Source of the DNA: Candidatus Scalindua sp.
GTDB taxonomy: Bacteria; Planctomycetota; Brocadiia; Brocadiales; Scalinduaceae
DNA: 32,000 nt
Assembly (NCBI GenBank): GCA_031316235.1
Contig: JALDRA010000001.1
Span: 450,001-482,000 of the forward strand
Direction of reading: 5' to 3'
A program made the position numbers and the translations under genes. The notes beneath the pieces were generated by a model. It saw nothing but the letters and a program-made list of their open reading frames with translations, had not been told where the DNA came from and made no database searches. Numbering within the stretch: the stretch's first letter is position 1; each line of letters begins with the position of its first letter. Below, one piece after another: positions 2,259-20,351 of the stretch.

Positions 2259-3449
2259 GTGTACAGAAGTACGTTTTCTCTCTTTTTTCTTTGTATTATC
2301 GTATGCTCCTGCAGCAGGAATGAACACCCCACAGGAGCGCCGAACACCCCGGCAAAGGTAAGTAAGGGCGTCAATGAGTCGCTGCTCACAACCGTTACCC
2401 TTACCCCGGAGGCAGAGCAGCGTCTGGGGATAGAGACTGCAGTGACAGAATATCGACAGGTGCAGGATACTTTGAGGCTCGGAGGAGAAACCATTGCACC
2501 CCCTGGTCATCAAGCCGTCATTTCCGCCCCGATGACCGGTACGATTTTCGGGATAAACAGTAATGTGCTGCTGCCTGCCGGATCCCGCGTTAAAAGGGGC
2601 CAGGCCGTCATGAACCTGCTGCTTCTCACGCCGGAGAAAGATCTTGCAGGCGCACGTGAAGCAGTTACCGTCAAACAGACTCAGCTGGAGGTTGCACAGG
2701 AGAAGGCCGTGCGCACAAAGCAGCTTTTACTCGATAAGGCGACCAGCGAGAAACTTTATACGGAGGCACAGGCAGAACTTGACAACGCAAGGGCATCTCT
2801 TACCGCAGCTGAGGCGCAGCTGGATCTCCTAAACGGCAAATGGTCTGAATCAGCACCGGAAGCTGTCTCCACGTTTGTGTTACGATCCCCTGTTGACGGA
2901 GTAATACAACACGTTCATGTTGCATCGGGTCAGACCGTTTCTCCGGCTACTCTCCTGTTCGAGGTTATCAGCCTCGATCCTCTCTGGGTACGCGTACCCG
3001 TTTATGTGGGAGACATGGCAGGGATAGACACTCAGATGGAAGCAGCCATTCATCCCCTGGGAAGTACGGGCAGCAAAACCCCTTGCATGGCAAAACCCGT
3101 AGATGGTCCCCTTCTGAGCGATCCAGCTACCGCATCGTCAGACCTCTTCTTTGAGATATCAAATCCCGGCCTCGTCTTTCGTTCGGGAGAGAGGGTAACC
3201 GTTTTACTGAAACTGCTGGGTTCAGGAGAAAGATTGGTTGTTCCCTGGTCTGCTGTACTCTATGACATCCATGGAGGAAACTGGGTTTATGTGAATACCT
3301 CACCGTACACATACGCAAGAAGGAGGGTTGAAATATCCAGCGTTATTGATGGTCTCGCTGTACTGACGAGGGGGCTTAAAAGAGGTGACGAGGTTGTTAC
3401 TACGGGAGCAGCAGAGTTATTTGGAACAGAATTTTGGGTGGGCAAATGA
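2259..3449 (+). CDS. RND efflux periplasmic adaptor (membrane fusion protein, HlyD/CzcB type), lipoprotein
   Basis: The track ORF 2181-3449 opens with TTG. I prefer GTG 2259, which is preceded by AAGGAG (2247-2252) and gives (M)[18 protein letters not shown], a lipoprotein signal. The protein has a coiled-coil hairpin ([17 protein letters not shown]...[20 protein letters not shown]) and a beta-rich C-terminus. Its stop overlaps the RND start (ATGA at 3446-3449). Confidence 0.85.
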
Positions 3450-6400
3450 TAAAATGGCTGGTTTCAACTTCACTCCGTCTGCGTGTATCCATCGTTGCAG
3501 TAACCATAATATTGTTGATTGCCGGTTCGTACACGGTGAGCAAACAAAGTTCCATTGACGTATTCCCTGAATTCGCCCCCCCCCTTGTCGAGATACAGAC
3601 AGAAGGACCCGGTCTTTCCACCTCCGAAGTTGAAACACTCATTACCATACCCGTTGAGAGTTCCATGAACGGTACCTCGTGGCTCAAGAAGATCCGGTCT
3701 AAATCAGTACTTGGTCTCTCTTCCGTCGTACTCTATTTTGATGAGGGAACCGACGTCATAGAGGCACGGCAGCAGGTCCAGGAGAGGGTATCCCGGCTTG
3801 TCAGTAAATTACCCTCTGCGGCAAAAACTCCCGTAATCCTCTCTCCCCTCTCCTCCACCAGCAGAGTTCTCAAGATAGGGCTCTCATCACAAAGACGGTC
3901 ACAGATGGAGATGACGACTGTTGCAAAGTGGACCATCAGGCCACGGCTGATGGCAATTCCGGGTGTTGCCAATGTTGCTATCTGGGGACAGCGTGACCGC
4001 CAGATCCAGGTCATCATAGACCCTGACATTCTGCATACCCACGGAGTTACCATAAACGATGTGGTTCTGTCTGTCCGCAACGCCACGTCAATCGGCGGAG
4101 GAGGATTCATCGACACACCCAACCAGCGGATTTCAGTCTCACACGTACTCACCCTGAAAACTCCGGAGGATCTTTCCTCTGTTCCGGTTGCTTTTCGTAA
4201 CGGGGTGACGCTGAAACTGGGTGACGTAGCTGAGCTGAGAGAAGGGTTTCCACCCCCCATAGGTGATGCAGTGATAAATGACGGACCGGGCCTGCTGCTG
4301 ATCGTCGAAAAAGAGCCGTGGGGAAATACCCTTGAAGTAACACAGAAAATTGAAGAGGTCCTCGATGCACTCAAGCCGGGAATTAAGGACATTGAAATAG
4401 ATTCAACAATATTTCGCCCGGCCACCTTTATCGAAATGTCACTCCACAACCTTAACAAGTCACTCCTTATCGGCTGTGTTCTGGTGATTATTATCCTGGC
4501 ATTTTTTCTCAATGAGTGGCGGACGGCCCTCATCAGTGTACTGGCTATCCCGACTTCACTTGTTATCGCTTCACTGATTCTGCACTACCGCGGAGGAACT
4601 ATTAATACCATGGTACTTGCTGGTCTTGTTATTGCACTCGGTGAACTTGTTGACGATGCCGTCATAGACGTAGAAAACATCATGCGCAGACTCCGTCTCA
4701 ACCGTGAGGCCGTCACTCCCCAACCGGCATTCATGGTTGTGCTCAATGCCTCACTTGAAGTGCGCAGTGCTGTAGTATATGGCAGCGTAATAGTCGTTTT
4801 AGTCCTCATGCCGGTTTTCTTCCTTGAGGGACTGTCCGGTTCTTTCTTTCGGCCTCTCGCTCTTTCCTACATACTGGCAATCATGTCATCCCTTTTCGTA
4901 GCCCTTACCCTCACCCCGGCATTGTCGCTTATTCTGCTGCCCGGGGCATCTCAACGCGGGGAACCCTCATTTGTAACATGGTTGAAGTCGCGTTACCGAA
5001 AAATACTTCCGGTAGTACTGTTGAGGCCGAAACGTGTTATCTCTTTTCTGGCCGGAGCCTTCATCTTGGCATTAGTCTCTCTAACCTTTCTGGGCGAAGA
5101 ATTCCTCCCCGATTTCAAAGAACACGATTTCCTGATGCACTGGGTGGAAAAACCGGGAACCTCACTGCAGGCAATGGAACGTATAACCACCCGCGTGAGT
5201 AAGGAGTTGCGTGCCATTCCCGGTGTCCGCAATTTCGGTTCACACATTGGCCGTTCTGAAGTCGCGGATGAGGTGGTAGGTCCGAATTTTGCCGAACTCT
5301 GGATCAGTATAGACCCTGAAGTTGATTACGATTCCACCGTAGCAGGAATACAGGAGGTAGTGGACGGGTATCCTGGTCTGTACAGAGATCTGCTTACGTA
5401 TCTTCGCGAGAGGATCAAGGAGGTGCTCACCGGTTCCAGCGCTACGATTGTAGTACGTATTTATGGTGACAACCTTGAAGTACTTCATGAGAAAGCCCTG
5501 GAAGTTCACGACACTATTTCCGGTGTGAAAGGGGTTTCTGACCTGAAGGTGCAGCCACAGATTATGGTACCGCAGGTAGAGGTGCATTTTCGTCCTGAAG
5601 CTGCTGCGAATTTCGGACTGAACAGCGGCATGGTTCGTGAAGCTGTTGGCTTACTATTAAATGGAATGAAAGTGGGAGAATTTTATGAAGACCAGAACAT
5701 CTTCGACGTTGTGGTAACGGGTGCCCCGCAGATTCGGGATAATCTCAGTGCCTTGCGTTCTCTCAGGATAGAGACACCTGCAGGGGGTATCGTTCCACTC
5801 AATGCTGTTGCAGACGTTGTCGTCGCCCCCACACCAGATAAGATTACACGAGAAGCCGCCTCCCGTTATACTGAAGTTACATGCAATGTACGCGATCGCG
5901 ATCTTTCTGGTGTGGCGGGTGATATTGAAAGCAGGATCACAAATATCCCCTTTGAGAGCGGTTATCACCCGGAGATCCTTGGAGAATATGCCGCTCAGGA
6001 AGCATCGAGAAACCGCATTATTGTTCTCTCAACTCTGGCCATTACCGGTATTTTCCTTATCCTGCATGTAAGTTTCAGTTCAGTAAGGCTCGCACTGCTC
6101 GTCTTCCTCGGTCTTCCATTCGCATTGATCGGAGGGGTGGTATCCGCATTTCTGGGAGGTGGTGTTCTTTCTCTTGGTTCACTCATAGGTTTTATCACGG
6201 TGCTTGGGATATCAGCAAGAAACAGTATAATGCTCATCAGTCACTATAACCACCTTCAAAGAGAAGAAGATCAGCCTTTTACTAAAGAGCTGATTGTCCG
6301 CGGTTCAATAGAACGGCTGGCACCTATCCTGATGACGGCCTTGACAACGGGCCTGGCACTCTTACCCATAATTATAGGCGGTAATCGCGCAGGCCAGGAG

Positions 6401-6520
6401 ATTGAGCATCCAATGGCAATCGTCATAATTGGCGGCCTGGTGAGCTCAACCCTGCTCAACCTGATTGTGATGCCGGTCATGTATTGGGAATTCGGTGCAA
6501 CAGACAGGGAGAGGAGTTAA
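3446..6520 (+). CDS. RND efflux permease (CzcA/CusA-like overall; substrate not assignable)
   Basis: The track ORF starts at TTG 3434; the first ATG is 3446 and gives [15 protein letters not shown]..., a typical RND N-terminus. The protein is about 1024 aa with two large periplasmic loops and 12 hydrophobic segments. TM4 reads [15 protein letters not shown]. The start is translationally coupled to the MFP gene. Confidence 0.9.
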
Positions 6521-6639: not shown

Positions 6640-6694
6640 CATTAACGGTTGTTCATCCAGACTTCATCTTATCTTCATGTTTAATTGATATAAT
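6640..6694 (+). promoter_or_regulatory. Phased 4-hexamer module plus -10 box upstream of the two-component system (putative autoregulatory promoter)
   Basis: H1 6640 CATTAA, H2 6651 GTTCAT, H3 6662 CTTCAT, H4 6673 CTTCAT, a 10-nt spacer, then a perfect TATAAT at 6689-6694. It lies about 105 nt upstream of ATG 6800. Confidence 0.55.
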
Positions 6695-6799
6695 TGAGTC
6701 CATGATGTTTTTATCAGATAATCCTGATCGCGGATCTTGTCCACATCTTATCAAGGTTTTCGGACATTTGTGCCTCCGCATCAGAAAGGGATACATCAA

Positions 6800-7474
6800 A
6801 TGAAAATACTGATTGTCGAAGATGAAGTGAAATTGGCACGTTACCTGAAACAGGGTTTTGAAGAAAATTCTTTTGTAGTGGACCTTGCACATAATGGCAC
6901 TGATGGTTTACATCAGGCGGTACACGAAAGTTACGATATGATAATACTGGATATAATGCTTCCGCAGCATGATGGGATGGAAATACTTACTCGTATGCGC
7001 AGTGCCGGGATATATACCCCCGTAATCTTTCTCACCGCAAAGGATTCTATAGAAGACAAGGTAAATGGATTAAACAGCGGGGCTGATGATTATGTTATAA
7101 AACCTTTCTCTTTTCACGAATTATTAGCCCGTGTCCGCGTTTGTCTGCGAAGAGTATCAGACAAGAAAGAGGTAAAATTGAAGATAAACGGCTTGACACT
7201 TGACCCCATAGCACGAAAAGTATTTATGAAGGGTAAGAGGATAGACTTGTCACCAATTGAATTCTCCCTCCTCGAGTATATGATGCACCACTCAGGTCAG
7301 GTAGTAACACGAACAATGATTTCTGAGCATGTATGGGACTCCCATTTTGAGGGTTTCAGTAATGTTGTGGACGTACACATCGCCAAGTTAAGAGGTAAAA
7401 TAGACAAAAAACATCATAATAAACTCATACATACGGTAAGGGGAGTTGGCTATGTTCTCGAAGAACGCGACTAA
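6800..7474 (+). CDS. OmpR/PhoB-family response regulator (receiver plus winged-helix DNA-binding domain)
   Basis: MKILIVEDEVKLARYLKQ...MIILDIMLP... forms the receiver domain. The C-terminus ...VVDVHIAKLRGKID...IHTVRGVGYVLEE is a winged helix. ATG 6800 is preferred over the track start 6737, which would add 21 non-homologous residues. Confidence 0.9.
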   Translation: MKILIVEDEVKLARYLKQGFEENSFVVDLAHNGTDGLHQAVHESYDMIILDIMLPQHDGMEILTRMRSAGIYTPVIFLTAKDSIEDKVNGLNSGADDYVIKPFSFHELLARVRVCLRRVSDKKEVKLKINGLTLDPIARKVFMKGKRIDLSPIEFSLLEYMMHHSGQVVTRTMISEHVWDSHFEGFSNVVDVHIAKLRGKIDKKHHNKLIHTVRGVGYVLEERD

Positions 7475-8888
7475 ATTTTACCAATCAATCTGTTTTAAAA
7501 TTACGGTATGGTATTCAGTATCTATTTTCATAATATTGATTACAGCCGGAGGATTTCTGTATTTCCGATTAACGCATAAGCTGAATAAGGAAGTTAACCT
7601 TATACTCTTTGACGAAAGCGGAGAAGTATTGCAGGATATCATGGAGAAGAAATTCACACAGAACAGCTTAAAAGATGCGATAGAAATGGAAGCTTCTGAT
7701 GAGAAATACTTTAAGGTATCTGCAAGAGTGCTTGATATGGAACAGAACACCCTGATCACTTCAGCAAACTTTTTCGCACCAGACTTAAAGATTTCTGAAA
7801 GATCTATTGGAAATGCTGAAAAAGGTACGGTCACATTTGATACGATACGGGTTCAAGGCAGAGAATCTCCCTACCGCCTGATAACAAGGCCTGTATATCT
7901 TGACAACTCCCTGAAGTATCTCCTTCAGGTGGCTATCTACCTGAAGCCGACACAGAAAATAGTTGAAAATCTGGAAGAAAATTTCGCGATGCTGATACCT
8001 GTGCTCACGATAATCACCGTTCTTTGCGGATGGCTCATTGCAAAGCGGAGTTTAGCTCCCATCAAAGGCATAAACAAAATGACGCAAACAATAACGGCAT
8101 CTAATTTAAGTAAGAGGTTACACGCTACCCATACCGGGGATGAATTGGATACATTAACAGGCACCATTAACAATATGCTCGACAGGCTGGAGAATTCCTT
8201 TAAAAGAACAAGGCAGTTTTCCTCTGATGCGTCTCATGAACTCAGGACTCCCATTGCTTCCCTCAAAACCGGAATTGAAGTCACACTTTCAAAGAATAGA
8301 ACCACTGAAGAGTATTGTGTACTACTCATAAACAATTTAAGAGTATTAGAGAGGATGACCAGGCTGGTCAATGATTTATTAGAACTATCCAGAACAGATT
8401 CAGACGTTAACGTATTAGACATGAAATTGATCAATCTAGCCGATATCCTGAAGGATCAGCATGAGAAATTCATGCTGATATCGGAATCAAGGAACATAAA
8501 GATCCTCATGAACGAGGTACCAGACATGCATATCCTGGGGGATGAGGCTCTCTTGCGGCGTCTCTTCTGCAATCTGCTTGACAATGCCGTTAAATATACT
8601 TCCTCCGGAGACCATGTCACTATCTCTCTGGAAGAGAGAGGCAGAGAGATTTTCGTCCGTATTGAAGATACGGGTATCGGTATCCCTGAGACAGATCTTG
8701 AAAAGATTTTTGACCGTTTCTTCCGTGTCGACCCGTCACGTACCAGAGAAACTGGCGGGAGCGGTTTAGGACTGAGTATCTGCAAAAATATCGTAGCACT
8801 CCACAGAGGTACCATTGGAGTAGAAAGTAAAATAAACTCCGGTACTACGGTTACCGTACATCTTCCCAGAAATCACCCTCAATCCTGA
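7452..8888 (+). CDS. Sensor histidine kinase (2 TM, periplasmic domain, HAMP, HisKA, HATPase_c; CusS/PmrB-like class)
   Basis: The H-box is FSSDASHELRTPIASL; the N box is LLDNAVKYT; the G boxes are EDTGIGIP and GGSGLGLSI. Two hydrophobic segments flank a periplasmic region of about 130 aa. The track start 7446 is TTG; the first ATG is 7452. The gene overlaps the 3' end of the RR gene. Confidence 0.9.
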   Translation: MFSKNATKFYQSICFKITVWYSVSIFIILITAGGFLYFRLTHKLNKEVNLILFDESGEVLQDIMEKKFTQNSLKDAIEMEASDEKYFKVSARVLDMEQNTLITSANFFAPDLKISERSIGNAEKGTVTFDTIRVQGRESPYRLITRPVYLDNSLKYLLQVAIYLKPTQKIVENLEENFAMLIPVLTIITVLCGWLIAKRSLAPIKGINKMTQTITASNLSKRLHATHTGDELDTLTGTINNMLDRLENSFKRTRQFSSDASHELRTPIASLKTGIEVTLSKNRTTEEYCVLLINNLRVLERMTRLVNDLLELSRTDSDVNVLDMKLINLADILKDQHEKFMLISESRNIKILMNEVPDMHILGDEALLRRLFCNLLDNAVKYTSSGDHVTISLEERGREIFVRIEDTGIGIPETDLEKIFDRFFRVDPSRTRETGGSGLGLSICKNIVALHRGTIGVESKINSGTTVTVHLPRNHPQS

Positions 8889-9363: not shown

Positions 9364-9419
9364 CATTAGCAATTTTTAATCTTTTTTTCACCATATGTTA
9401 ATGTTCAGTATGTTATATA
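9364..9419 (+). promoter_or_regulatory. Phased 4-hexamer module plus -10 box upstream of arnT
   Basis: H1 9364 CATTAG, H2 9375 TTTAAT, H3 9386 TTTCAC, H4 9397 GTTAAT, an 11-nt spacer, then TATATA at 9414-9419. It lies about 150 nt upstream of ATG 9569. Confidence 0.5.
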
Positions 9420-9568: not shown

Positions 9569-11212
9569 ATGAATAAAAAGCTATTGTTCAGTTTATCTCT
9601 ACTATTTCTTCTCTTGTACATGGTACCGCTCAATGTACGCCCTGTTAACACACCGGACGAGACTCGATACGGAGAAATCTCCCGGGAAATGCTGATTACC
9701 GGAGACTTTATTGTTCCCCGGTTGAACGGGCTGAGATATTTTGAAAAACCGGTCCTTGGATACTGGCTGAATGCCGCATCCATGGCTCTGTTCAGCGATA
9801 ATGGTTTTGCTGTTCGTTTCCCATCTGCTCTTGCGGTTGGGCTTACCGCCATGATAATATTTTTACTTGTTCGTCGCTTTCATGGATACGATAAAACCGC
9901 ATTGTTGTCCGCCTTCATCTATATAACATTTATTGTTGTATACGGTGTTGGCACCTTATGCGTGATGGACAGCCTGCTGACTTTTTTCCTGACCGCAGCG
10001 ATGGGCTGTTTTTTTGTTGCCAGCACCAACACGACTGTGAGGAATCGAAACGTGTGGTTATTGCTCTGCGGGGTTTTCTGCGGTGCGGCTTTTCTGACAA
10101 AAGGTTTCCTCGCATTTGCCCTGCTGACGTTGACGGTGATTCCATTCCTGTTGTGGAATAGACGCGGAAGGGATATGTTCACCCTATTGTGGCTTCCTCT
10201 CCTCGCCGCCGTGGCTGTTTCGCTTCCCTGGTGCCTGATGATTGCCTCGCGTGAGCCAGATTTCTGGCGCTATTTTTTCTGGAACGAACATGTACAGCGC
10301 TTTCTCTCGGCAGACTCCAGCATGCATGCTCAGCCGTTCTGGTCCTTGATTCCGGTCTTCCTTGCCGGTGCGTTTCCCTGGATACTGGTCACTCCCATGG
10401 CTATTAGCCAATATAAACGTGAACTTCTCCGTAAACCGCTGATTCGTTTCTCTCTCTGCTGGATGGCTTTTTCGCTGGTGTTCTTTTCGGCTTCTTCAGG
10501 CAAACTAATTGCATATATTCTACCCTGTTTTCCTCCACTGGCAGTGCTTATTGCAATTGGTCTTACCGAATATTTCCGGAGTGGCAGCAAAAGAATGTTC
10601 CACTATTGTACCGTTTTGTCGATTATCATAACGGGCCTGATGGTTACTGCATTGCTTCTCATCGCGTTTACGCCTGCTCTGCACTGGAGGATTTACGGCA
10701 CAGAAGAGGGGCATAAACTGTGGTATTGCGTCTTCGGGGCGGTGTTGTGCCTTGTGATTATGATTAAGACTGTGCGGACACAGGACAGGCTGTGGAAAAC
10801 GGCTACACATGGACTCTCAGCCACCGCCATAATGCTGGTATTTCCTTTCGCTGTGCCGGTAGATAATTTTACCCATGCTGGAATGACAACTTTTCTGGAT
10901 TCTCAGAAAGATCACATAACTACGGATACATTCCTGATATCGGATTACCGAACAGTGCAGGCTGTCTGTTATACTTATAAACGTAAAGACGCCTATCTTT
11001 TTCTCAACAGCGGTGAACTCAGTTACGGGGTGTCCTATCCGGACAGCTCCTGCCGTTCCATCGATACTACCGGCCTGAAAAACCTTCTGCACGAGCGCAA
11101 CCGCCAGGTAGCAATTATCATAAAGGAAACCACGAAGTTAAGAGCCAATCTACCCTGGCCAGAGCCAATATATCAAACTATCTGGAAAGACTACTGGTTT
11201 GCGATATACTAA
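9569..11212 (+). CDS. arnT: Undecaprenyl-phosphate-L-Ara4N:lipid A 4-amino-4-deoxy-L-arabinosyltransferase (ArnT, GT-C/GT83)
   Basis: 547-aa polytopic protein, colinear with E. coli ArnT as I recall it: PDETRYGEISREML (Ec PDETRYAEISREML), LRYFEKPVLGYW (Ec LRYFEKPIAGYW), REPDFWRYFFWNEHVQRF (Ec REPNFWHYFFWVEHIQRF), GELSYGVSYPD (Ec GELKYGLNYPD). Confidence 0.9.
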   Translation: MNKKLLFSLSLLFLLLYMVPLNVRPVNTPDETRYGEISREMLITGDFIVPRLNGLRYFEKPVLGYWLNAASMALFSDNGFAVRFPSALAVGLTAMIIFLLVRRFHGYDKTALLSAFIYITFIVVYGVGTLCVMDSLLTFFLTAAMGCFFVASTNTTVRNRNVWLLLCGVFCGAAFLTKGFLAFALLTLTVIPFLLWNRRGRDMFTLLWLPLLAAVAVSLPWCLMIASREPDFWRYFFWNEHVQRFLSADSSMHAQPFWSLIPVFLAGAFPWILVTPMAISQYKRELLRKPLIRFSLCWMAFSLVFFSASSGKLIAYILPCFPPLAVLIAIGLTEYFRSGSKRMFHYCTVLSIIITGLMVTALLLIAFTPALHWRIYGTEEGHKLWYCVFGAVLCLVIMIKTVRTQDRLWKTATHGLSATAIMLVFPFAVPVDNFTHAGMTTFLDSQKDHITTDTFLISDYRTVQAVCYTYKRKDAYLFLNSGELSYGVSYPDSSCRSIDTTGLKNLLHERNRQVAIIIKETTKLRANLPWPEPIYQTIWKDYWFAIY

Positions 11213-11317
11213 AACCTATTTGGTTTTCGGTTTTACCGGAAACCAAATCCTGGTGAAGGTATACTCGCTCAATTTTATCCCGGATTTAATCCGAAATCCA
11301 GTATGAGATGAGTATAT
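11204..11317 (-). repeat. MITE-like intergenic repeat, copy A (inverted relative to copies B and C)
   Basis: 114 bp. Its reverse complement aligns end to end with 26836-26950 and 21526-21666. It has 7-bp terminal inverted repeats (ATATACT...AGTATAT) and two internal hairpins. Its left terminus (ATATACTAA) contains the last two sense codons and the stop codon of arnT. Confidence 0.8.
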
Positions 11318-11347: not shown

Positions 11348-11402
11348 CATTACTATTTTTTAATCTATTCTTCATTATGACTTAATGTTTGTTTGTTATA
11401 AT
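11348..11402 (+). promoter_or_regulatory. Phased 4-hexamer module plus -10 box upstream of the cmoA-like gene
   Basis: H1 11348 CATTAC, H2 11359 TTTAAT, H3 11370 CTTCAT, H4 11381 CTTAAT, a 10-nt spacer, then a perfect TATAAT at 11397-11402. It lies about 68 nt upstream of ATG 11470. Confidence 0.55.
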
Positions 11403-11469: not shown

Positions 11470-12216
11470 ATGAATAAAGATACAATTTTTGCAGATAAGA
11501 AAAATAGCATGTCTGACTTTAATTTTGGAAAGGAGACTGCGGCGGTATTTGATGATATGCTTGAAAGATCTGTCCCTTTCTATAACGAAATACAGAGGAT
11601 GTTATGCGAAATAGCGGTGGATTTTGCGGCGGACGGCACTCATGTCTATGATTTAGGGTGCTCCACAGGTACCACCCTTTTAAATATCTGTAAGGCGGTA
11701 AAAAAAGATGTCAGATATATCGGGATAGATTATTCACAAGACATGCTGAACAGGTGCAGAGTAAGGTTTTCTGAAAGCAAGGTAACAAAAGAATACTCTC
11801 TTACCTGCATGGACTTAAACAATGGGATTAATATCACAAACGCATCTGTTGTCATTATGAATCTGACACTGCAGTTTGTGCGTCCTTTGCACAGGGACCA
11901 TATAATAAAGAATATTTATAACGGTTTGTGTGAAAACGGCTGTTTAATCCTCATTGAAAAAGTGCTGGGCAACAACTCTGACTTTAACAGGATGTTCATA
12001 AAATACTACTATGAGATGAAGAAAAGAAATGGATATACTGAACTGGAGATATCACAAAAGAGAGAGGCGTTAGAAAATATTCTCATACCATACCGGTTAG
12101 ATGAGAACAGGGACCTCTTAAAAAAAGCAGGTTTTGACCACTGCGATACGTTCTTCAAATGGTATAACTTTTGTGGTCTGGTAGCATTGAAAAGCAGTTT
12201 GCACTCTCAAAAATAA
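11470..12216 (+). CDS. cmoA: CmoA-like class I SAM-dependent enzyme (carboxy-S-adenosyl-L-methionine synthase homologue)
   Basis: 248 aa, colinear with E. coli CmoA as I recall it: FDDMLERSVPFYNEI (Ec FPDMIQRSVPGYSNI), VYDLGCSTG (Ec VYDLGCSLG), NASVVIMNLTLQF (Ec NASMVVLNFTLQF), NGYTELEISQKREALENI (Ec NGYSELEISQKRSMLENV), KKAGFDH...YNFCGLVALK (Ec HKAGFEH...FNFGSLVALK). No cmoB-like gene is present in the window. Confidence 0.7.
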   Translation: MNKDTIFADKKNSMSDFNFGKETAAVFDDMLERSVPFYNEIQRMLCEIAVDFAADGTHVYDLGCSTGTTLLNICKAVKKDVRYIGIDYSQDMLNRCRVRFSESKVTKEYSLTCMDLNNGINITNASVVIMNLTLQFVRPLHRDHIIKNIYNGLCENGCLILIEKVLGNNSDFNRMFIKYYYEMKKRNGYTELEISQKREALENILIPYRLDENRDLLKKAGFDHCDTFFKWYNFCGLVALKSSLHSQK

Positions 12217-12558
12217 TATGTCTGCTACCCAACCTGGACAGGCCAGAACTAAACAGGAGTTAATAAATAACAAATTTCAAATCACAAACTACAAACAAAT
12301 TCCAATATATGAAATAATATACTAACTTGTTTGTTTTAAAAATAGTTCTTGAGATTTTCTTAATATAAAGAGAAACGTTTTTGGCAGACTGGATTTGTTT
12401 GTGCTTCTAAATCATATTGTTTGGACATTTTGAACTTAATTAATTGGAATTTGTTTGTTATTTGGATTTTATTATTTGGTGCTTGTTAGACGTTCTAAAG
12501 AATTTGTTTTAATAATTTTTTTGACAAAATTGGTTAAAATATTCTTATTAAGAGACTA

Positions 12559-13335
12559 ATGAAGAGCATGAGTGAAATTAAAATACCCTACGGTACAGGC
12601 TTTTTCAGAAAGTCTATGATAAATACCGGCAACATTCTGTTTCGATATAGAAATACGATGTTTTTCATGGTTGGAATCATATTGTTCATCAGCACAAAAC
12701 CAGAATTTATCTTTGAGAGTACGTTTTATGACAATTGTATGGATGTTGCCGGCTTTGCCGTAGCTGTAACCGGACAGATATTGAGGGCTTTGGTGATAGG
12801 CAAAGACTACATCAAAAGAGGAGGAAAAGATAATAAGATGATGGCGAACCGGTTAGTGCAGGGAGGCCTCTTTGCCCATTCCCGTAATCCCCTCTACTTT
12901 GGGAATATCTTGATTATCATTGGCCTGGGTATCATCTATAATTCAGTCTTGGGATATATTACTTCGTATAGTTTCTTCGTCTTTGGATATTTGGCCATTG
13001 TTATGGCTGAGGAAGATTTTCTGAGAACAAAGTTTGGTGTGGAGTACGAGGAATATTGTAAGAGGGTGCCCAGATTTATTCCACGATTTGCCGGAATCAG
13101 AAATACACTGAGTAATGGAGGTTTCGACTGGTTACGTTTCCTAAGGAAGGAATACAACATGATTTGCATATGGGTCGGTAGCGCTATCATTTTAAGGATA
13201 TGGGCAGAGATTCTCCATTTCGGATACGCCGCCAGGAAAAGGGACATATTGGTCATGTCTATATGCCTTATTCCGATTTTAATTTTTTACTGTGTAACAC
13301 GTTATTTGAAAAAAAATAAAAAACTTTCCACGTAG
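12559..13335 (+). CDS. ICMT/PEMT-family integral-membrane methyltransferase (Ste14/LmtA-like)
   Basis: 258-aa protein with multiple TM segments. It carries the family signature LVQGGLFAHSRNPLYFGNILIIIGL followed by AEEDFLRTKFGVEYEEYCKRVPRFIP. Confidence 0.75.
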   Translation: MKSMSEIKIPYGTGFFRKSMINTGNILFRYRNTMFFMVGIILFISTKPEFIFESTFYDNCMDVAGFAVAVTGQILRALVIGKDYIKRGGKDNKMMANRLVQGGLFAHSRNPLYFGNILIIIGLGIIYNSVLGYITSYSFFVFGYLAIVMAEEDFLRTKFGVEYEEYCKRVPRFIPRFAGIRNTLSNGGFDWLRFLRKEYNMICIWVGSAIILRIWAEILHFGYAARKRDILVMSICLIPILIFYCVTRYLKKNKKLST

Positions 13336-13483: not shown

Positions 13484-14449
13484 ATGAAACAATACAAAAA
13501 ACTCCTGCTCTTATTTTTAACTATAATAATTCTTAGTTGTATTCTTGCTCCTCTCGTAAAAATACCTCTGGATTTTATGTTAGAAAAAGGAGAATTTTTT
13601 GCAGATAGTGTGGACTATGAAAATGGCACATATGATTTTGGCAAGGTAATGAGGCGACTATTAATGCTCGCTGCATTGATAGTGTTTGTGATTTTAAGAA
13701 AGTCTCTGAAAATTTACCCCCTAATGGCTTTAGGCATGAAGCAGAGGTCTGGATGTTTCAGGAAATTTCTTTTTGGCTTCCTAATGGCCATAATTTCGCT
13801 GCTAATTTACTACTCTCTTGCACTGTTTTTCGGTGCATGGATAGTTCACATAGATTATCATTTAGTTGGAATTGTAATATCTAAAATTATCAAATATCTT
13901 TTAGTCGGCTGTCTTATAGGTCTCATTGAAGAGATATTTTTTAGAGGTTTTGTCTTGCAATTCTTTATGAAGGACATGTCCGTAGCAATTGCCGTATGTG
14001 CAACCAGCGCGATTTACTCTGTTCTTCACTTTTTCCAGTCTGAAGTTCTTGTTACCAGAGGGTTTCAGCCATTTGTCGGTTTAATCACTATGTCACATTT
14101 TTTTAAACCTCTTTTTCTTCAATTCATAGAAAACCTGTCTTCAATCATTGGCCTTTTTTTGGTTGGTGTGGTGCTTTCTTATGCATTTCTTCTATCAAAA
14201 TCATTATACCTTTCTATAGGCTTGCACTCAGGATGGGTATTCATGATGAAGGCTGACAGCCTCTTCCTTGTTCGGGTTCGAGAGAAGTATGAGTGGGTTT
14301 TTGGTAATAGTAATCAGTTAGTGACAGGTTTTATTGTATGGGCTTCTCTGATATACGTCTTGTTTATAATAAAGAAGGTTTATCGTAATACTCATAATTC
14401 CGGAGCATATCTCAAATCATCCGATTCAGGCCAGAATTCTTTCAGATGA
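13484..14449 (+). CDS. CPBP-family intramembrane glutamic endopeptidase (CAAX protease / Abi family)
   Basis: 321-aa polytopic protein. Motif 1 is LIEEIFFRGF (EExxxR), motif 2 is SAIYSVLHFF (FxxxH) and motif 3 is IGLHSGWVF (H-containing helix). Confidence 0.75.
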   Translation: MKQYKKLLLLFLTIIILSCILAPLVKIPLDFMLEKGEFFADSVDYENGTYDFGKVMRRLLMLAALIVFVILRKSLKIYPLMALGMKQRSGCFRKFLFGFLMAIISLLIYYSLALFFGAWIVHIDYHLVGIVISKIIKYLLVGCLIGLIEEIFFRGFVLQFFMKDMSVAIAVCATSAIYSVLHFFQSEVLVTRGFQPFVGLITMSHFFKPLFLQFIENLSSIIGLFLVGVVLSYAFLLSKSLYLSIGLHSGWVFMMKADSLFLVRVREKYEWVFGNSNQLVTGFIVWASLIYVLFIIKKVYRNTHNSGAYLKSSDSGQNSFR

Positions 14450-14517: not shown

Positions 14518-14572
14518 CATTAACATTTCCTCATCTCCCATTCATCATAACTTAATTTTTAATTGGTATAGT
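14518..14572 (+). promoter_or_regulatory. Phased 4-hexamer module plus -10 box upstream of GT-C paralogue 2
   Basis: H1 14518 CATTAA, H2 14529 CCTCAT, H3 14540 ATTCAT, H4 14551 CTTAAT, a 10-nt spacer, then TATAGT at 14567-14572. It lies about 44 nt upstream of ATG 14616. Confidence 0.55.
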
Positions 14573-14615: not shown

Positions 14616-16406
14616 ATGGCAAAACTTCAATCTATCTGTCCTGACAAGCGAAGCAGAGATCTTGTTATTCTGTTCGTAGGTGGTTTACTCGTGTATTTTA
14701 TGAACATTGGTTCCCTTCCGTTATCTCATTCCGAAGACCGTTGGGGTGAGATTGCAAGGGAAATGGAGCTTTCAAATAATTGGTATACCCCGACGATAAA
14801 TGGAGAAATTTATTGGGACAAACCAATCTTATCTTATTGGGCGATCCTTGGCGTTAAAAAGATCATCGGGAGTCCTCAGCTCAGCGAATGGATAATTCGT
14901 TTTCCGACTCTTCTGGCCAGCTTCCTCATTCCATTCCTTATGTATGATCTTACCTCTTTTTTCTTTAACCGCAAGATTGGTCTAACCGGCGCTTTGATAA
15001 TCTTAACATCCTTTCAAATGTATCAGATTGGACGTGTGGCATCCTCGGACATGTTGAACCTGCTACTTTTTCTGACATCACTTTGGATCTATTTTAAGAC
15101 CGTTCAGAAAAACCGTGGTTTCTGGTGGTGGTTGCTGCTGGGCTTTATTATAGGAGTCAATTGCCATATCAAAGGGTTGATTGGAGTGCTTCCGTATCTG
15201 GTTATCTTGAGTCACAGGATTTTCAGCCATGGTTTCAAATCTCTCTCCCGGGAATTCTTATTCCGTTTTTCTCTAAGTACCTTCCTGGCAGGGACTATTT
15301 ATCTGGGTATGTGGTGCTGGATACTTGGAGATGTAATCAATACAATAAGCGGAATATATACCTATCTGATCTCTGGTTCGGCGGATGCTCTACCTTTACC
15401 GTTACGCATGGTTATACAGGAAAATCTAAACAGAGTTGCTACTGATTCAATAGACCATAAGAATCCTCCATGGATTTATCTGGAAGCGCCCTTCTCTTTT
15501 CTATTTCCCTGGTCTCTCTTTTTACCGGGTGCATTGGTCACATGGTGGCGGGACAGAAAAATGACAAAGGATAAAAAAGAACCATTCGGGATCTGGTTTT
15601 TTTCTCTCCTCATCTTTTTCTCCTTAATGTCTTCAAGAAGGCCGTATTATCTTTTACCGGCCATACCAGCTGCTGCGGTTCTTATTGCCGTGCATATCCA
15701 TCTGCTGATTAAATGTGATGAAACCAGCGGCATATCCGGCAACTTAAGAAAAAGAAGTGTGTTCATATACGGACTTTTACTGACATGTCTGGTTTTCACT
15801 ATGGGAGCCTTGCTTATTTTTGTTTCCGGTTCTGTTCCTGAGAGACTCAATTCTGTCTATTTGTATCCGTCGGGCATAGCTTCTTTTGTTATTGGAGGAA
15901 CGCTTTTGGTTGTTGCCGTAAAGAAGAGTTTTTCTACGGTAATTAATACCTTCACCGTTTTTTTAATTCTTCTTATTATTGTCGTAAACTTAAGTCTTCC
16001 GGATATCGGAAATAATTCTACTTTCAGAGAATTTACGAAAATAGTGAATGAGAAAACTTTAAACAAAAGAGTTGTTCTTTTTCTAGTAGATAACGCCAAA
16101 CTTATATACGGACTGGAGCATCCACCTTATCCATGTGTTCCTTCTGAGGTAAATGCATCTCCGGAAGAGTCAGTGAGACAACTTGTCGAAGAAACTGCTC
16201 CTGGTGATTTTGTTTTGTTAGAAAAGAGAAACCTTTCCCTTCTTTCAAGATTGAATTATGAACTCATACTTGAGGAACTACCCAATCCCTCCTACCTGAA
16301 GATGGAATGGAAAAACGGACCAAAAATTATTCCCAACGAAAACCATATCAAGAAGAAAACATTACTCTTATTACGTATTCTTAACCATGACTCCCAAAAG
16401 AAATAG
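14616..16406 (+). CDS. ArnT/PMT-family GT-C glycosyltransferase (paralogue 2, acceptor unknown)
   Basis: 596-aa polytopic protein. The first periplasmic loop, HSEDRWGEIAREMELSNNWYTP...IYWDKPILSYW, reproduces the ArnT/PMT_2 D-E-x-R...E-I-x-R-E and [FW][ED]KP motifs. It has a soluble C-terminal domain of about 130 aa. Confidence 0.8.
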   Translation: MAKLQSICPDKRSRDLVILFVGGLLVYFMNIGSLPLSHSEDRWGEIAREMELSNNWYTPTINGEIYWDKPILSYWAILGVKKIIGSPQLSEWIIRFPTLLASFLIPFLMYDLTSFFFNRKIGLTGALIILTSFQMYQIGRVASSDMLNLLLFLTSLWIYFKTVQKNRGFWWWLLLGFIIGVNCHIKGLIGVLPYLVILSHRIFSHGFKSLSREFLFRFSLSTFLAGTIYLGMWCWILGDVINTISGIYTYLISGSADALPLPLRMVIQENLNRVATDSIDHKNPPWIYLEAPFSFLFPWSLFLPGALVTWWRDRKMTKDKKEPFGIWFFSLLIFFSLMSSRRPYYLLPAIPAAAVLIAVHIHLLIKCDETSGISGNLRKRSVFIYGLLLTCLVFTMGALLIFVSGSVPERLNSVYLYPSGIASFVIGGTLLVVAVKKSFSTVINTFTVFLILLIIVVNLSLPDIGNNSTFREFTKIVNEKTLNKRVVLFLVDNAKLIYGLEHPPYPCVPSEVNASPEESVRQLVEETAPGDFVLLEKRNLSLLSRLNYELILEELPNPSYLKMEWKNGPKIIPNENHIKKKTLLLLRILNHDSQKK

Positions 16407-16682: not shown

Positions 16683-16738
16683 CATTAATACAATTTAATT
16701 ACACTATCATCTTCTCTTAATGTTGCTTTTGATAGACT
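16683..16738 (+). promoter_or_regulatory. Phased 4-hexamer module plus -10 box upstream of GT-C paralogue 3
   Basis: H1 16683 CATTAA, H2 16694 TTTAAT, H3 16705 TATCAT, H4 16716 CTTAAT, an 11-nt spacer, then TAGACT at 16733-16738. Confidence 0.5.
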
Positions 16739-16825
16739 CGGAAAATTCATTTTCAGAATTATTGAAAATAGTACCTTCGAGTAATGATATCTTCTTACCT
16801 TCTCAAAGGAGTCAGGGAAAATAGT

Positions 16826-18523
16826 ATGAAACGTGTGCTGAAAATTACTGTCACATTGCTCCATTCCCGATACTGGTTAGTGTTAATGCTCCTAGCCGTG
16901 TCCTTTGTGGGGATATTTGACCATGACCTCTGGACATCCGATGAACCCCGTGTTGCTGAAATCGGGAGAGAATTTCTTGACGATGACGCTTCTCTCGCTG
17001 TACCGACGCTTGGCAGAGAGCCATTTCTGGAAAAGCCACCTCTCTATTTCTGGTGCGTGGCCCTCTCTTACAAGACCTTTGGAGGCCCATCGGCCAGTGC
17101 CGCCAGAATCCCTTCTGTATTCTTCGGACTTGGGACTCTTCTCTTTACCTATCTCCTTGCCAGGAAAATGTATGGCAGAAACAGTGCTCTCTGGTCATGT
17201 ATGGTCCTTGCCTTAAGCACTGAATACTTTACTATTACGCATAAATCACTCGTGGATATCTCTCTTGTATTTTTTGTGACAGGGACCGTTTACTGGCTCT
17301 ATCTGGCACTGACTGAGAAGAAAGATAAAAAAATGATCTATTATGCCCTGTGCTATCTCTTCGCCACCGGTGCTTTTTTTACGAAGGGATTTCTGGGCCT
17401 TGCGCTCCCAGCCCTGGTTTTTATCTGTTCGATAGCATGGACAAGGCAATGGAGTGAGCTAAAAAAAGCCAGGCTCTGGATGGGTTTCCTTATTGTTGGT
17501 GCTGGAATCAGCCTCTGGCTTTCTGACCTCTGGAAGGAAGGTTCCTGGGAATATATCAGTACATTCCTGGTGCATAACAACCTGCAGCGTTTTATGCCCG
17601 GGACGGGATATTCCGGGGGGCACGAAAAGCCATTTTATTACTACATGTGTGTGTATTGGAGTGCGTTTGCACCGTGGAGTGTATTGACACCCGCCATACT
17701 CCTCTATATCTGCCGTAAAGGGTTCCAGGAGAAGCAGATACTCTTTCCTGTTTTGTGGTTTCTCTCAGGCTTCCTCCTGCTCTCACTTGCCGAGACAAAG
17801 CGCTCTATCTATATTGTACCTCTTTTACCCCCCATTTCGATACTTACGGGTGCATGGTTCAGTGATTTGGAGACCCGCAGGGCTGAAGGCCGGTTAGATA
17901 GAGCCGGCCAGTGGTGTATCATCGGTATCTCTGTCATGTGCGTTGTTTTATTTCCCGTATTGGCTTTTAAGTACGACTTGTATAAGAGTGTTACGTTTAT
18001 TGTATTCATGCCCGTAATTCTCATTGGTTCTATCGCTCCCATTCACTCATTTATCAGGTGCAGGGTTATTAAGCTATATGGATTACCCATACTTTTGAGC
18101 ATGCTGTATCTCTCTTTTGTACTGGTTTCCTATCCATACATTAATAAGCACAAATCAATGAAACCTTTTTGTGATACCCTGGGCAGACTACAGGCAGTAA
18201 AAGGAAAAACTATCTATGCCTTCTGCCCCGATGAGACCACAGAGGCGGTAATACCATTCTATACCGGTAATTATGTCACACCGATCTGGGAGCTGGAGGA
18301 GATGAAAGCTGTTGGAAGAGAGAGAGATGCACTGGTCCTTGTTGTAGACAAACACGAGAACAGACCTCTCTATAACAGTCTCAGTGAACTGTTTTGCAAC
18401 ACCATCGTTTCAGGACAGACAGGAAGAAGGCGTATGGTGCTGCTCAGTAATTTCAGTACATTAAACCATGAAGAGGAGCACTACACCTCCATATTCGGGA
18501 ACATGAATAAAGGAACCAATTAA
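16826..18523 (+). CDS. ArnT/PMT-family GT-C glycosyltransferase (paralogue 3, tandem pair member)
   Basis: The track ORF starts at ATG 16784. ATG 16826 (MKRVLKITVTLLHSRYWLVLMLLAVSFVGIFDHDLW) aligns with the N-terminus of the downstream paralogue. Motifs are SDEPRVAEIGREF and PFLEKPPLYFW. The protein is polytopic with a soluble C-terminal domain. Confidence 0.8.
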   Translation: MKRVLKITVTLLHSRYWLVLMLLAVSFVGIFDHDLWTSDEPRVAEIGREFLDDDASLAVPTLGREPFLEKPPLYFWCVALSYKTFGGPSASAARIPSVFFGLGTLLFTYLLARKMYGRNSALWSCMVLALSTEYFTITHKSLVDISLVFFVTGTVYWLYLALTEKKDKKMIYYALCYLFATGAFFTKGFLGLALPALVFICSIAWTRQWSELKKARLWMGFLIVGAGISLWLSDLWKEGSWEYISTFLVHNNLQRFMPGTGYSGGHEKPFYYYMCVYWSAFAPWSVLTPAILLYICRKGFQEKQILFPVLWFLSGFLLLSLAETKRSIYIVPLLPPISILTGAWFSDLETRRAEGRLDRAGQWCIIGISVMCVVLFPVLAFKYDLYKSVTFIVFMPVILIGSIAPIHSFIRCRVIKLYGLPILLSMLYLSFVLVSYPYINKHKSMKPFCDTLGRLQAVKGKTIYAFCPDETTEAVIPFYTGNYVTPIWELEEMKAVGRERDALVLVVDKHENRPLYNSLSELFCNTIVSGQTGRRRMVLLSNFSTLNHEEEHYTSIFGNMNKGTN

Positions 18524-18524: not shown

Positions 18525-18602
18525 CATTAACATATCTTAATCTTTCCTTCATAATTTATTAACCTTTGCTTCACCATTTCTTAATGCTTGACTTTATATA
18601 CT
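18525..18602 (+). promoter_or_regulatory. Extended phased hexamer array plus -10 box upstream of GT-C paralogue 4
   Basis: 18525 CATTAA, 18536 CTTAAT, 18547 CTTCAT, (18558 ATTAAC), 18569 CTTCAC, 18580 CTTAAT, all on an 11-bp register. The -10 box is TATATA at 18595-18600 or TATACT at 18597-18602. The array starts 2 bp after the stop of the upstream paralogue. Confidence 0.5.
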
Positions 18603-18722: not shown

Positions 18723-20351
18723 ATGAACAAGTTAGCATTCAAATTTCCCGATTCTCAATACTGGATTGCCACCCTGATCCTCGCCGTGTCTTGTGTGGGG
18801 ATATTTGGCCATGATCTCTGGCCATCAGATGAGCCACGTGTTGCTGAAATCGGGAGGGAGTTCCTTGATGACGGTGCATCTCTGGCTGTACCACGGCTTG
18901 GCGGAGAACCATTTCTGGAAAAACCTCCTCTCTATTTCTGGTGCGTGGCCCTCTCTTATAAGGCATTTGGCGGTCACTCGGCAGGCGCAGCGAGACTCCC
19001 CTCGCTATTTTTCAGTATTGGAACTCTTCTCTTTACCTATCTCCTTGCCGGAAGGATGTATGGCAGAAACAGTGCTCTCTGGTCCTGTGTGATCCTTGTC
19101 TTAAGCCTTGAGTTTTTTTCAATTGCCCATAAATCGCTTGTTGATTCTTCTCTCGTCTTTTTCGTAACCGGAACTATTTACTGGCTTCATTCAGCCTTAA
19201 CCGCGGAGAATGATAAAAAGGGAGTTTTTTATACTCTCTCCTATATCTTTGGGACCGGGGCATTTTATTCTAAAGGGTTTCTTGGCCTTGCATTTCCAGC
19301 CATGCTGTTTATCTGCTGGATTGTGTTGACAAGAGATTGGAGTGAGATAAAAAGAGCCAGACTCTGGAGCGGAATCCTTATCGTTTGTGCCGGAATCGGT
19401 ATCTGGTTTTTTGCCCTCTGGAAAGAAGGTTCCTGGGAATATATCATTACATTTCTCGGACATAACAACCTGCAGCGTGTTCTCCCCGGGGCAACCTATA
19501 CAGGTGGGCATGAACACCCTTCTTACTATTACCTGGTTCGCTATTGGCGTGCGTTTGCACCATGGAGTATATTGACGCCGGCCGTAATTTATCATGTCTA
19601 TCGTAAGGGGTCCCGGGATAAAAACAGTCTCTTTCTTGTTCTGTGGTTTGCCTCCGGTTTCCTTATGCTCTCGCTTGCCGGAACCAAACGGCCTCTCTAT
19701 CTTGTCCCTCTTTTTCCCGCCCTTTCGATACTTACGGGTGCATGGTTTAACGATGTGGAAACACGCGTAACTCAGGGAAGATTAGTCAGCATAAGCCAAT
19801 GGTCTGTTATGTGTATTTCCTTTATCAGTATTGCTACAGCAGCTATTGCTGCTTTTAAGTACGACCTGCACAAGAGTGTTGCGTTTATTGTATTGATGCC
19901 CGTAATTCTCATCTCTTTTATCGCTCTCTTTCACTCTTTTATTACGCATAAGTGTATTAAATTATCTGGATTATCCATAGTGATGATGCCGATTTATCTA
20001 TCGTTTGTGCTGGTTTCCTATCCATATCTAAACGAAAACAGAAGCCTCAAGCCTTTCTGTAATGAGTTAGGTCAAATAGCTGCAATAAAAGAACAACCCC
20101 TTTATGCCTTCCAGCCGGGTGAGATTGAAAGGGCTATGGTACCCTTCTATACCGGATATTATATTACACCAATACAGAGTTTAGTTGAGATGAAATCCAT
20201 GGCCGGAAGCAAAGATGTGCTTGTCCTTGTATTGGATGAGCGTAACAGCAGGCCTTTATATAACAGCCTCAAGGATATATTTCCAGATGTTCTCGTTTCA
20301 GGACAATCTGGCAAAAGACATATGGTACTCATGACTAATAAAGGAAAATAA
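18723..20351 (+). CDS. ArnT/PMT-family GT-C glycosyltransferase (paralogue 4, tandem pair member)
   Basis: 542 aa, colinear with 16826-18523 and by eye roughly two-thirds identical. It has the same SDEPRVAEIGREF and PFLEKPPLYFW motifs. Its stop lies 3 nt before the arnB start. Confidence 0.8.
   Translation: MNKLAFKFPDSQYWIATLILAVSCVGIFGHDLWPSDEPRVAEIGREFLDDGASLAVPRLGGEPFLEKPPLYFWCVALSYKAFGGHSAGAARLPSLFFSIGTLLFTYLLAGRMYGRNSALWSCVILVLSLEFFSIAHKSLVDSSLVFFVTGTIYWLHSALTAENDKKGVFYTLSYIFGTGAFYSKGFLGLAFPAMLFICWIVLTRDWSEIKRARLWSGILIVCAGIGIWFFALWKEGSWEYIITFLGHNNLQRVLPGATYTGGHEHPSYYYLVRYWRAFAPWSILTPAVIYHVYRKGSRDKNSLFLVLWFASGFLMLSLAGTKRPLYLVPLFPALSILTGAWFNDVETRVTQGRLVSISQWSVMCISFISIATAAIAAFKYDLHKSVAFIVLMPVILISFIALFHSFITHKCIKLSGLSIVMMPIYLSFVLVSYPYLNENRSLKPFCNELGQIAAIKEQPLYAFQPGEIERAMVPFYTGYYITPIQSLVEMKSMAGSKDVLVLVLDERNSRPLYNSLKDIFPDVLVSGQSGKRHMVLMTNKGK

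Follow-up and report, generated by a model that had tools for sequence, protein, structure and literature searches.

The stretch of DNA analysed here, hereafter the window, comprises 32,000 nucleotides (nt) of a contig of Candidatus Scalindua sp. and carries two neighbouring genes, one for a homologue of CmoA, the synthase of carboxy-S-adenosylmethionine (Cx-SAM), and one for a polytopic membrane transferase of the LmtA/ICMT type. Both lie on the + strand, as does every gene between 834 and 25779, and both are set among genes for lipid A modification (Table 1). The original prediction, made from this sequence, had described the first gene as a cmoA without cmoB, with a promoter module of its own and next to a membrane methyltransferase, and had proposed, as speculation, that an envelope lipid or glycan is carboxymethylated in a Cx-SAM-dependent manner. 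In our comparative analysis the two genes form a near-obligate pair, which recurs at about 125 further loci of bacteria belonging to a dozen phyla, and the LmtA-like enzyme, not CmoB, is the conserved partner of this CmoA-like subfamily.

Judging from its profile matches, the cmoA-like gene encodes a real member of the CmoA family, as originally proposed, and one that belongs to a distinct subfamily. The 248-amino acid (aa) protein scores 244.6 bits against TIGR00740 (cut-off, 193.3), covering model positions 1-239 of 239, and 186.8 bits against the narrower, enterobacterial-type model NF011995, which is under the cut-off of 285. Its residues 2-242 align with E. coli CmoA (4GEK; E = 1.4e-49) and with H. 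influenzae YecO (1IM8), and it is 36% identical to the E. coli enzyme. The two stretches singled out in the original prediction are present as ERSVPFY and EISQKRE, and the arginine that was held there to bind the carboxylate of Cx-SAM is kept, R198 of the window protein being equivalent to R199 of E. coli CmoA. In the E. coli enzyme, Arg199 forms a 2.7-Å salt bridge to the extra carboxylate of S-carboxymethyl-S-adenosylhomocysteine (SCM-SAH; Byrne et al., 2013, PMC3663124), and this ligand is also contacted by Y39, D62, G64, S66, A70, D89, N90, D117, I118, N132, and F137 (PMC3663124). The window equivalents are R198, Y38, D61, G63, S65, D87, D115, N131, and F136, and the sole side-chain difference among the compared contacts is the replacement of N90 by Y88. 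Across the subfamily, R199, Y39, D62, G64, D89, and F137 (E. coli numbering) were found in all 71 of the 71 sequences, S66 in 68, and D117 in 69, and 45 positions are common to the paired CmoA-like proteins and the E. coli and Haemophilus enzymes. The paired proteins are 50-85% identical to the window protein (with one outlier at 36%) and 34-42% identical to E. coli CmoA, with a mean identity of 65% across a subfamily that spans phyla; the nearest relatives are encoded in metagenome-assembled genomes (MAGs) of Candidatus Scalindua (80-86% identity). All relatives are publicly annotated as plain "CmoA". From family membership and residue conservation, we infer that the CmoA-like protein makes Cx-SAM from S-adenosylmethionine (SAM) and prephenate, the other products of the CmoA reaction being phenylpyruvate and H2O.

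The pairing was examined in both directions. One genome per species was scanned with the window CmoA-like protein as the query, yielding 79 loci (57-85% identical) in Planctomycetota (Scalindua, Brocadia, and others), Omnitrophota, Verrucomicrobiota, Nitrospirota, Acidobacteriota, Eisenbacteria, Gammaproteobacteria, Gemmatimonadota, Hydrogenedentota, Methylomirabilales, Binatia, Myxococcota, and Auribacterota; the fetched flanks extended up to 10 kb on each side of these genome loci, and 5-10 kb across about 160 loci. An LmtA-like gene lies immediately 3' of the cmoA-like gene, on the same strand, in 76 of the 79 (about 12 phyla). In the reverse scan, Joint Genome Institute (JGI) metagenomes were searched with the LmtA-like profile and the family-specific peptide H[SC]RNPLY[LVF]G, and 80 loci were returned among >600 matching stretches, 51 of them testable (≥700 nt upstream). 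The cmoA-like gene was found upstream in 49 of these 51, and 23 of the 29 contigs with <700 nt upstream carry the 3' part of such a gene, nearly always cut at the contig edge. The distance from the cmoA-like stop codon to the aligned LmtA-like region has a median of 3 nt (151 pairs), about 60 pairs overlap, and the pairwise identities of the two proteins are correlated (r = 0.83; 54 loci). No CmoB-like gene was detected in the about 160 loci within 5-10 kb (tblastn with E. coli-type CmoB, 1e-4 to 1e-5). The same was true of the window, as the original prediction had stated: tblastn with E. coli CmoB gave no match at 1e-5, and every large open reading frame (ORF) was assigned to another family.

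Three genome loci have no membrane partner nearby, namely those of two related gammaproteobacterial MAGs (L051 and L070) and of a Tepidisphaeraceae MAG (L079). In L051 (9386-10723) and L070 (313-1035), a subfamily-type cmoA-like gene is followed by rplM-rpsI, and in L051 an adenosine 5'-phosphosulfate kinase gene abuts it on the upstream side. Conversely, an orphan LmtA-like copy (L096, 1739-2458) lies between MgtC-like and TrkA/TrkH genes without a cmoA-like gene. All credibly labelled hosts of the pair are diderms. Three loci labelled Candidatus Methanoperedens or Bifidobacteriaceae (L014, L037, and L057) seemed to place the pair in archaea or monoderms, and they were rejected as such: they are short contigs or carry TolC/RND-type genes (RND and outer membrane factor genes in L037), their sequences resemble those of Brocadia and other diderms, and they are probably mis-binned contigs in public MAGs. 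A search for cultured hosts returned essentially metagenomic sequences only, besides Planctomycetales bacterium ZRK34.

A further link concerns the second substrate of CmoA. Prephenate, which is made by chorismate mutase, is the stoichiometric co-substrate of this enzyme (PMC6599085), and a CM_2 chorismate mutase gene, either stand-alone or fused to 3-deoxy-D-arabino-heptulosonate 7-phosphate (DAHP) synthase, abuts the pair in 17 of the 79 genome loci, and 10 of the 80 metagenome loci have one nearby. In Gammaproteobacteria this gene follows the pair or separates its two members; in Acidobacteriota, Eisenbacteria, and Gemmatimonadota it precedes them. A 403-kb JGI contig (L083) carries the genes for a 113-aa CM_2 protein, the CmoA-like protein, and the LmtA-like protein in that order, each overlapping the next. 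When 1.84 billion representative proteins were searched exhaustively with the LmtA-like hidden Markov model, 490 clusters were obtained at E ≤ 1e-30, and among the longer matches at least five independent clusters (P0296, P0322, P0324, P0326, and P0332) contain an LmtA-like domain followed by a C-terminal CM_2 domain in one polypeptide. The fusion gene of P0324 overlaps by 14 nt a CmoA-like gene whose product is 45% identical to that of the window. A chorismate mutase fused to a membrane "methyltransferase" implies that the enzyme depends on a prephenate-derived cofactor, and the CM_2 linkage, together with the invariant Arg199, is to our mind the strongest argument that Cx-SAM is made and then consumed by the membrane protein. 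A further apparent fusion in L063 was discarded, its two parts being in different reading frames and Pfam finding only CM_2 in the ORF. In the window, the 342-nt spacer between the two genes contains neither a chorismate mutase match nor an ORF of 60 aa or more.

The product of the second gene (258 aa, or 255 aa with the start given in databases) matches Pfam PEMT (PF04191) with 40.1 bits (cut-off, 25), in agreement with the ICMT/PEMT-type membrane transferase originally foreseen. Against TIGR04571 (LmtA_Leptospira), it scores 86.6 bits (E = 2e-24) over model positions 9-246 of 252; this is far under the 325-bit cut-off, which makes it a homologue and not an orthologue of LmtA. LmtA is the sole characterised family that spans the whole protein, including C-terminal helices that ICMT lacks, and it is reportedly, in Leptospira interrogans, the O-methyltransferase of the lipid A Kdo2 1-phosphate. 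TIGR04571 is presumably confined to Leptospira, whereas the LmtA-like family described here occurs in about 12 phyla. Weak NCBIfam matches were obtained to isoprenylcysteine methyltransferase (38.3 bits) and MddA (16.9 bits), and the database names of the protein are all generic ("methyltransferase family protein", "ICMT family", and "hypothetical").

Structurally, the enzyme resembles ICMT/Ste14. The LmtA-like profile matches only ICMT structures in the PDB (5VG9, 5V7P, and 4A2N; E about 1e-11), and the C-terminal, cofactor-binding half is conserved between the two (LVxxGxF...R-x-P-x-Y and EE..L..FG..Y..Y....R..P). The AlphaFold2 model (mean predicted local distance difference test, 88.6) consists of an ICMT core and about 70 extra C-terminal helical residues. 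Foldseek placed Ma-ICMT (4a2n) and ICMT (5v7p) on top with a probability of 1.00 and weak E-values (7e-3 to 0.1); it returned only ICMT-type folds, which do not indicate the acceptor. In an alignment of 52 homologues, R28, R73, R84-G85-G86, R106, P108, Y110, E148-E149, Y163, R169, and K248 are invariant. R73 aligns with R173 of beetle ICMT, which we take to bind the anionic group of the acceptor. The hallmark motifs of the family are SRNPLY, in which the RHPxY of ICMT has become RNPLY (His replaced by Asn), and YIKRGGK, an invariant loop that is extra with respect to ICMT; within it, R84-G85-G86 and K87 form a candidate carboxylate-binding site. The direct fusions to chorismate mutase indicate that the enzyme has its C-terminus in the cytoplasm. 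Among P0365/P0241 we also observed one variant with an extra transmembrane segment and a C-terminal OmpA-like periplasmic domain, as well as a tandem double ICMT-like protein.

The original placement of the pair in a lipid A modification locus is borne out by the map of the window (Table 1): homologues of ArnT, ArnB, ArnC, ArnA (formyltransferase and dehydrogenase), and ArnD all have these families as their best NCBIfam matches, and with the three further paralogues the locus holds four GT83 genes. The ArnT-like protein also matches Pfam PMT (114.9 bits). ArnT, ArnB, ArnC, and ArnD score below their equivalog cut-offs, so that the identity of the transferred sugar is not certain. ArnA is represented by two separate genes, in contrast to the fused enterobacterial protein, and the last two GT83 genes stem from a recent tandem duplication, with 71-80% nucleotide identity at a 1888-nt period.

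Table 1. Features of the Candidatus Scalindua window (positions in the 32,000-nt stretch).
Feature	Position	Strand	Basis or remark
TolC-like, RND adaptor, and CzcA-like pump genes	834-6520	+	Family assignment
Promoter module	6640-6678	+	Upstream of response-regulator gene
OmpR-family response regulator	6737-7474	+	TIGR01387, 279.6 bits, above cut-off
Sensor kinase, heavy-metal/PmrAB-like	7446-8888	+	TIGR01386, 308.9 bits, above cut-off
Promoter module	9364-9405	+	Upstream of arnT
ArnT-like lipid A 4-amino-4-deoxy-L-arabinosyltransferase (GT83)	9569-11212	+	NF009784, 486 bits (below 567 cut-off)
Hairpin, 14-bp stem, after arnT stop	11217-11250	+	dG -20.2 kcal/mol, z -4.9
Promoter module with TATAAT (11397-11402)	11348-11389	+	Before cmoA-like gene
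CmoA-like predicted Cx-SAM synthase, 248 aa	11470-12216	+	TIGR00740
AT-rich spacer, 342 nt, between cmoA-like and LmtA-like genes	12217-12558	+	ORF, terminator, and repeat scan
LmtA/ICMT-like polytopic membrane transferase, 258 aa	12559-13335	+	PF04191, TIGR04571
CPBP/Rce1-like intramembrane protease	13484-14449	+	PF02517, 51.6 bits
Promoter module copies, one before each further GT83 gene	14518-14559, 16683-16724, 18525-18588	+	
Three more GT83/ArnT-like glycosyltransferases	14616-16406, 16784-18523, 18723-20351	+	Pfam/NCBIfam
ArnB	20355-21521	+	Best NCBIfam match, below equivalog cut-off
Hairpin, 13-pair stem with one internal mismatch	21621-21656		About 100 nt past arnB stop; dG -17.8 kcal/mol
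ArnC	21796-22758	+	Best NCBIfam match, below equivalog cut-off
ArnA formyltransferase	22755-23678	+	NCBIfam, 344 (above 316 cut-off)
ArnA dehydrogenase/decarboxylase	23849-24901	+	NCBIfam, 563 (above 294 cut-off)
ArnD	24880-25779	+	Best NCBIfam match, below equivalog cut-off

A response-regulator-type promoter module had been assigned to the cmoA-like gene, and it is indeed one of six copies found by pattern search in the 32 kb, against 0.15 expected. The module (39-42 nt) consists of four half-sites of the CATTA/TTAAT/TTCAT types about 11 bp apart, a spacing that would be expected for OmpR/PhoB-type regulators; the 42-nt copy of the cmoA-like gene reads CATTA-N8-TTAATC-N5-TTCAT-N6-CTTAAT, and the copy before the last GT83 gene is duplicated internally with a 22-nt offset. 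By virtue of the shared module, the response-regulator gene, arnT, the cmoA-like gene, and the three GT83 paralogues would constitute a regulon. The copy before the response-regulator gene suggests autoregulation, and the two-component system (6737-8888) is the likely regulator of the island; sensor kinase and response-regulator genes were found upstream of the pair in 16 loci each, the window included. The hairpin after arnT is likely a terminator that makes the cmoA-like gene its own transcription unit. This hairpin and the one past arnB are near-identical (ATTTGGTTT.CGG...CCG.AAACCAAAT) and are likely terminators or a REP-like element. The spacer between the two genes of the pair is an outlier in length against the 3-nt median (53-229 nt in other Scalindua) and contains four exact copies of TTGTTTGT, the sole other copy in the 32 kb being just upstream of the cmoA-like gene. 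Neither a promoter module nor a predicted terminator was found in it, and it may serve as a further regulatory region or encode a small RNA.

Envelope genes recur beyond the window. GT83/ArnT-like genes, whose products modify the phosphates of lipid A, occur in the fetched flanks of 19 of the 79 genome loci, which is far above chance (roughly 1%, by a rough estimate), and ArnB- and ArnC-like genes in 12-14 of the 79; Arn-type neighbours were seen in Planctomycetota, Acidobacteriota, and Gammaproteobacteria alike, and L083 carries in addition a gene with a LAB_N domain. A CPBP/Rce1-like protease gene adjoins the pair in Scalindua (L002, L003, L006, and partly L007), in a Binatia MAG (L077), and on a metagenome contig (L146), that is, in <10 of about 160 loci, and the protease is accessory to the pair. 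Its position directly 3' of an ICMT-like gene echoes the eukaryotic pair of Rce1 and ICMT in CAAX processing, with the difference that this neighbour is conserved in few lineages only; we know of no prenylated-protein substrate in bacteria.

Taking these observations together, we think it rather likely that prephenate serves for the synthesis of Cx-SAM and Cx-SAM for carboxymethyl transfer to a membrane acceptor. General aromatic metabolism would supply the prephenate, or a dedicated chorismate mutase in the many other lineages where one adjoins the pair or is fused to the membrane enzyme, and the CmoA-like protein would convert this prephenate with SAM into Cx-SAM, the cofactor seen as SCM-SAH in E. 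coli CmoA. The LmtA/ICMT-like enzyme, to judge from the near-obligate synteny, the fusions, and the fold, would then transfer a carboxymethyl instead of a methyl group to an acceptor embedded in the membrane, at one of the acceptor's anionic or nucleophilic groups, the cofactor site of the enzyme presumably facing the cytoplasm with the SAM-binding motifs of ICMT kept. Roughly half of the confidence that we place in this route extends to the phosphate of lipid A (or Kdo2-lipid A) as the favoured acceptor, which is the weakest of these steps. Lipid A phosphate is favoured by analogy with LmtA, which acts on the lipid A 1-phosphate and gives the full-length match, and by the GT83/ArnT-type genes that repeatedly lie beside the pair and share a regulon with it in the window. 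In this Scalindua genome, carboxymethylation would probably be induced together with other envelope modifications by the adjacent two-component system, since the cmoA-like gene, arnT, and the three ArnT paralogues carry the same promoter module. The carboxymethylation put forward in the original prediction has thus gained comparative support from the adjacency in both scans, the correlated identities, and the adjacent or fused chorismate mutases, whereas the placement inside a lipid A locus is a feature of only about a fifth to a quarter of the loci.

Several points weigh against this reading. For every member of the pair the mechanism is inferred from sequence comparison, and the sole characterised relative of the membrane enzyme, LmtA, transfers plain methyl from SAM. 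No residue of the LmtA-like enzyme was pinned down as the binder of the extra carboxylate of Cx-SAM; in the CmoA-like subfamily, the cofactor contacts N90 and N132 vary, and fixed substitutions (E139R, H181Y, H182Y, S200E, and M201A, among others) could change the chemistry. Most loci, for example that of the cultured strain ZRK34 (L082), show no lipopolysaccharide (LPS) genes nearby. A carboxymethyl phosphodiester would keep the net charge about the same, so that the usual logic of charge masking is not obviously applicable. The absence of cmoB covers the 32-kb window and the flanks of the loci; the gene may exist elsewhere in this genome.

The scarcity of LPS genes in most flanks leaves room for a variant in which Cx-SAM is formed and the membrane enzyme uses it, the acceptor being something other than lipid A: an aminolipid such as phosphatidylethanolamine or an ornithine lipid (as with PEMT and with enzymes of the OlsG type), undecaprenyl-phosphate or the sugar linked to it (for example the amine of undecaprenyl-phosphate-linked 4-amino-4-deoxy-L-arabinose, Und-P-L-Ara4N), the C-terminus of a lipidated protein, as the CPBP/Rce1-like neighbour would suggest, or a small hydrophobic thiol, as for MddA. 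Enzymes of the PEMT/ICMT superfamily take amines, carboxylates, phosphates, and thiols as acceptors, and the weak matches to isoprenylcysteine methyltransferase and MddA, the CPBP gene after the ICMT-like gene in Scalindua and one Binatia locus, and the heavy-metal-type two-component system and RND genes that recur nearby would all fit. We nevertheless consider such an acceptor unlikely, though worth keeping in view: LmtA is the best full-length characterised match, GT83/ArnT-type genes are far commoner near the pair than by chance, the CPBP gene is rare, and all credibly labelled hosts are diderms. It is less probable still, and in our view distinctly doubtful, that ordinary SAM is used throughout, the membrane enzyme methylating a lipid and the CmoA-like protein being a conventional methyltransferase or a SAM-binding accessory subunit. 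LmtA itself, as described for NCBIfam TIGR04571, is a precedent for such methylation, with which the fixed substitutions, the variable N90 and N132, and the low NF011995 score would accord. Against it stands Arg199, which is retained in every subfamily sequence and has no known role besides its salt bridge with the extra carboxylate (PMC3663124); moreover, the adjacency and fusion of chorismate mutase would have no rationale unless prephenate is consumed, and a mean identity of 65% across phyla is what would be expected of a constrained catalytic enzyme.

That the gene is an ordinary tRNA-modification cmoA, with cmoB elsewhere in the genome and with a meaningless membrane neighbour and arn island, is how the public annotation of its relatives would be read; the cmoB search in its own genome was confined to the window, and three loci (L051, L070, and L079) are without a nearby membrane partner. 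We hold this to be very improbable. The adjacency in 76 of 79 and 49 of 51 loci from about a dozen phyla, with overlapping reading frames, would have to be fortuitous; cmoB was found in none of the about 160 loci, whereas the cmoA of E. coli overlaps its cmoB; the fusion partner of chorismate mutase is the membrane enzyme and nothing tRNA-related; and in the window the promoter module is common to the cmoA-like gene, arnT, and the GT83 genes.

The carboxymethyl transfer route that we prefer would share with E. coli CmoA-CmoB the family of the first enzyme (TIGR00740, with Arg199 and most of the cofactor contacts), the implied co-substrate prephenate (PMC6599085; PMC3663124), and the order of synthase and transferase, E. 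coli cmoA and cmoB overlapping by 4 nt. It would differ in that CmoB is a soluble Rossmann-fold protein, the carboxymethyltransferase of ho5U34 in tRNA, whereas the transferase here is a polytopic ICMT-fold membrane protein with a predicted membrane-embedded acceptor, and in that the synthase belongs to a distinct subfamily with fixed substitutions. LmtA is likewise a membrane enzyme, and the window gene sits in a lipid A modification locus. The group moved by LmtA is methyl, whereas carboxymethyl is predicted here on the ground that the gene is near-obligately paired with one for a Cx-SAM synthase and is often accompanied by a chorismate mutase gene. The island also recalls the PmrAB/Arn regulon of Enterobacteria, in that a two-component system adjoins arnT and the arnB, arnC, arnA, and arnD homologues and a common response-regulator-type module serves several units. 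It departs from that regulon in the split ArnA, the four GT83 paralogues, the insertion of the CmoA-like, LmtA-like, and CPBP genes between arnT and the other GT83 genes, and a sensor of the heavy-metal (CusS/CzcS) type with a CzcCBA-like pump upstream. As for the chemistry, SAM-dependent O- and N-methyltransferases are reported to accept Cx-SAM made by CmoA as a carboxymethyl donor when their active sites are altered at few positions, which makes a donor switch in an ICMT-fold enzyme chemically plausible. Those engineered enzymes are soluble and laboratory-evolved, whereas the pairing described here is natural, ancient, and membrane-bound.

To our knowledge, CmoB, acting on tRNA, is the only known consumer of Cx-SAM, and we know of no description of a Cx-SAM lipid system such as this one, judging from database names and general knowledge; the claim of novelty is provisional. 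A paper of 2019 (PMC6599085) describes the tRNA role of Cx-SAM only. We see about an even chance that Cx-SAM has a second, widespread role, in which a chorismate mutase, a CmoA-type synthase, and an ICMT-fold carboxymethyltransferase, joined in an operon or by fusion in a dozen or more diderm phyla, most of them uncultured, would install a carboxymethyl (glycolate-type) group on the phosphate of lipid A or on another envelope lipid. Such a lipid modification is not known to have been described so far, and thousands of "CmoA" annotations that imply tRNA modification would then be wrong for the subfamily. If this is true, a natural Cx-SAM-dependent membrane enzyme would double the known biology of the cofactor and, for anammox bacteria, Verrucomicrobiota, Acidobacteriota, Omnitrophota, and others, would define an envelope-lipid modification of a new type. 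It would account for the many bacteria that have cmoA but no adjacent cmoB, and would correct a systematic annotation error, the partner being now named only generically. E. coli already makes Cx-SAM, and the membrane enzyme would offer a natural template for carboxymethyl-transfer biocatalysis.

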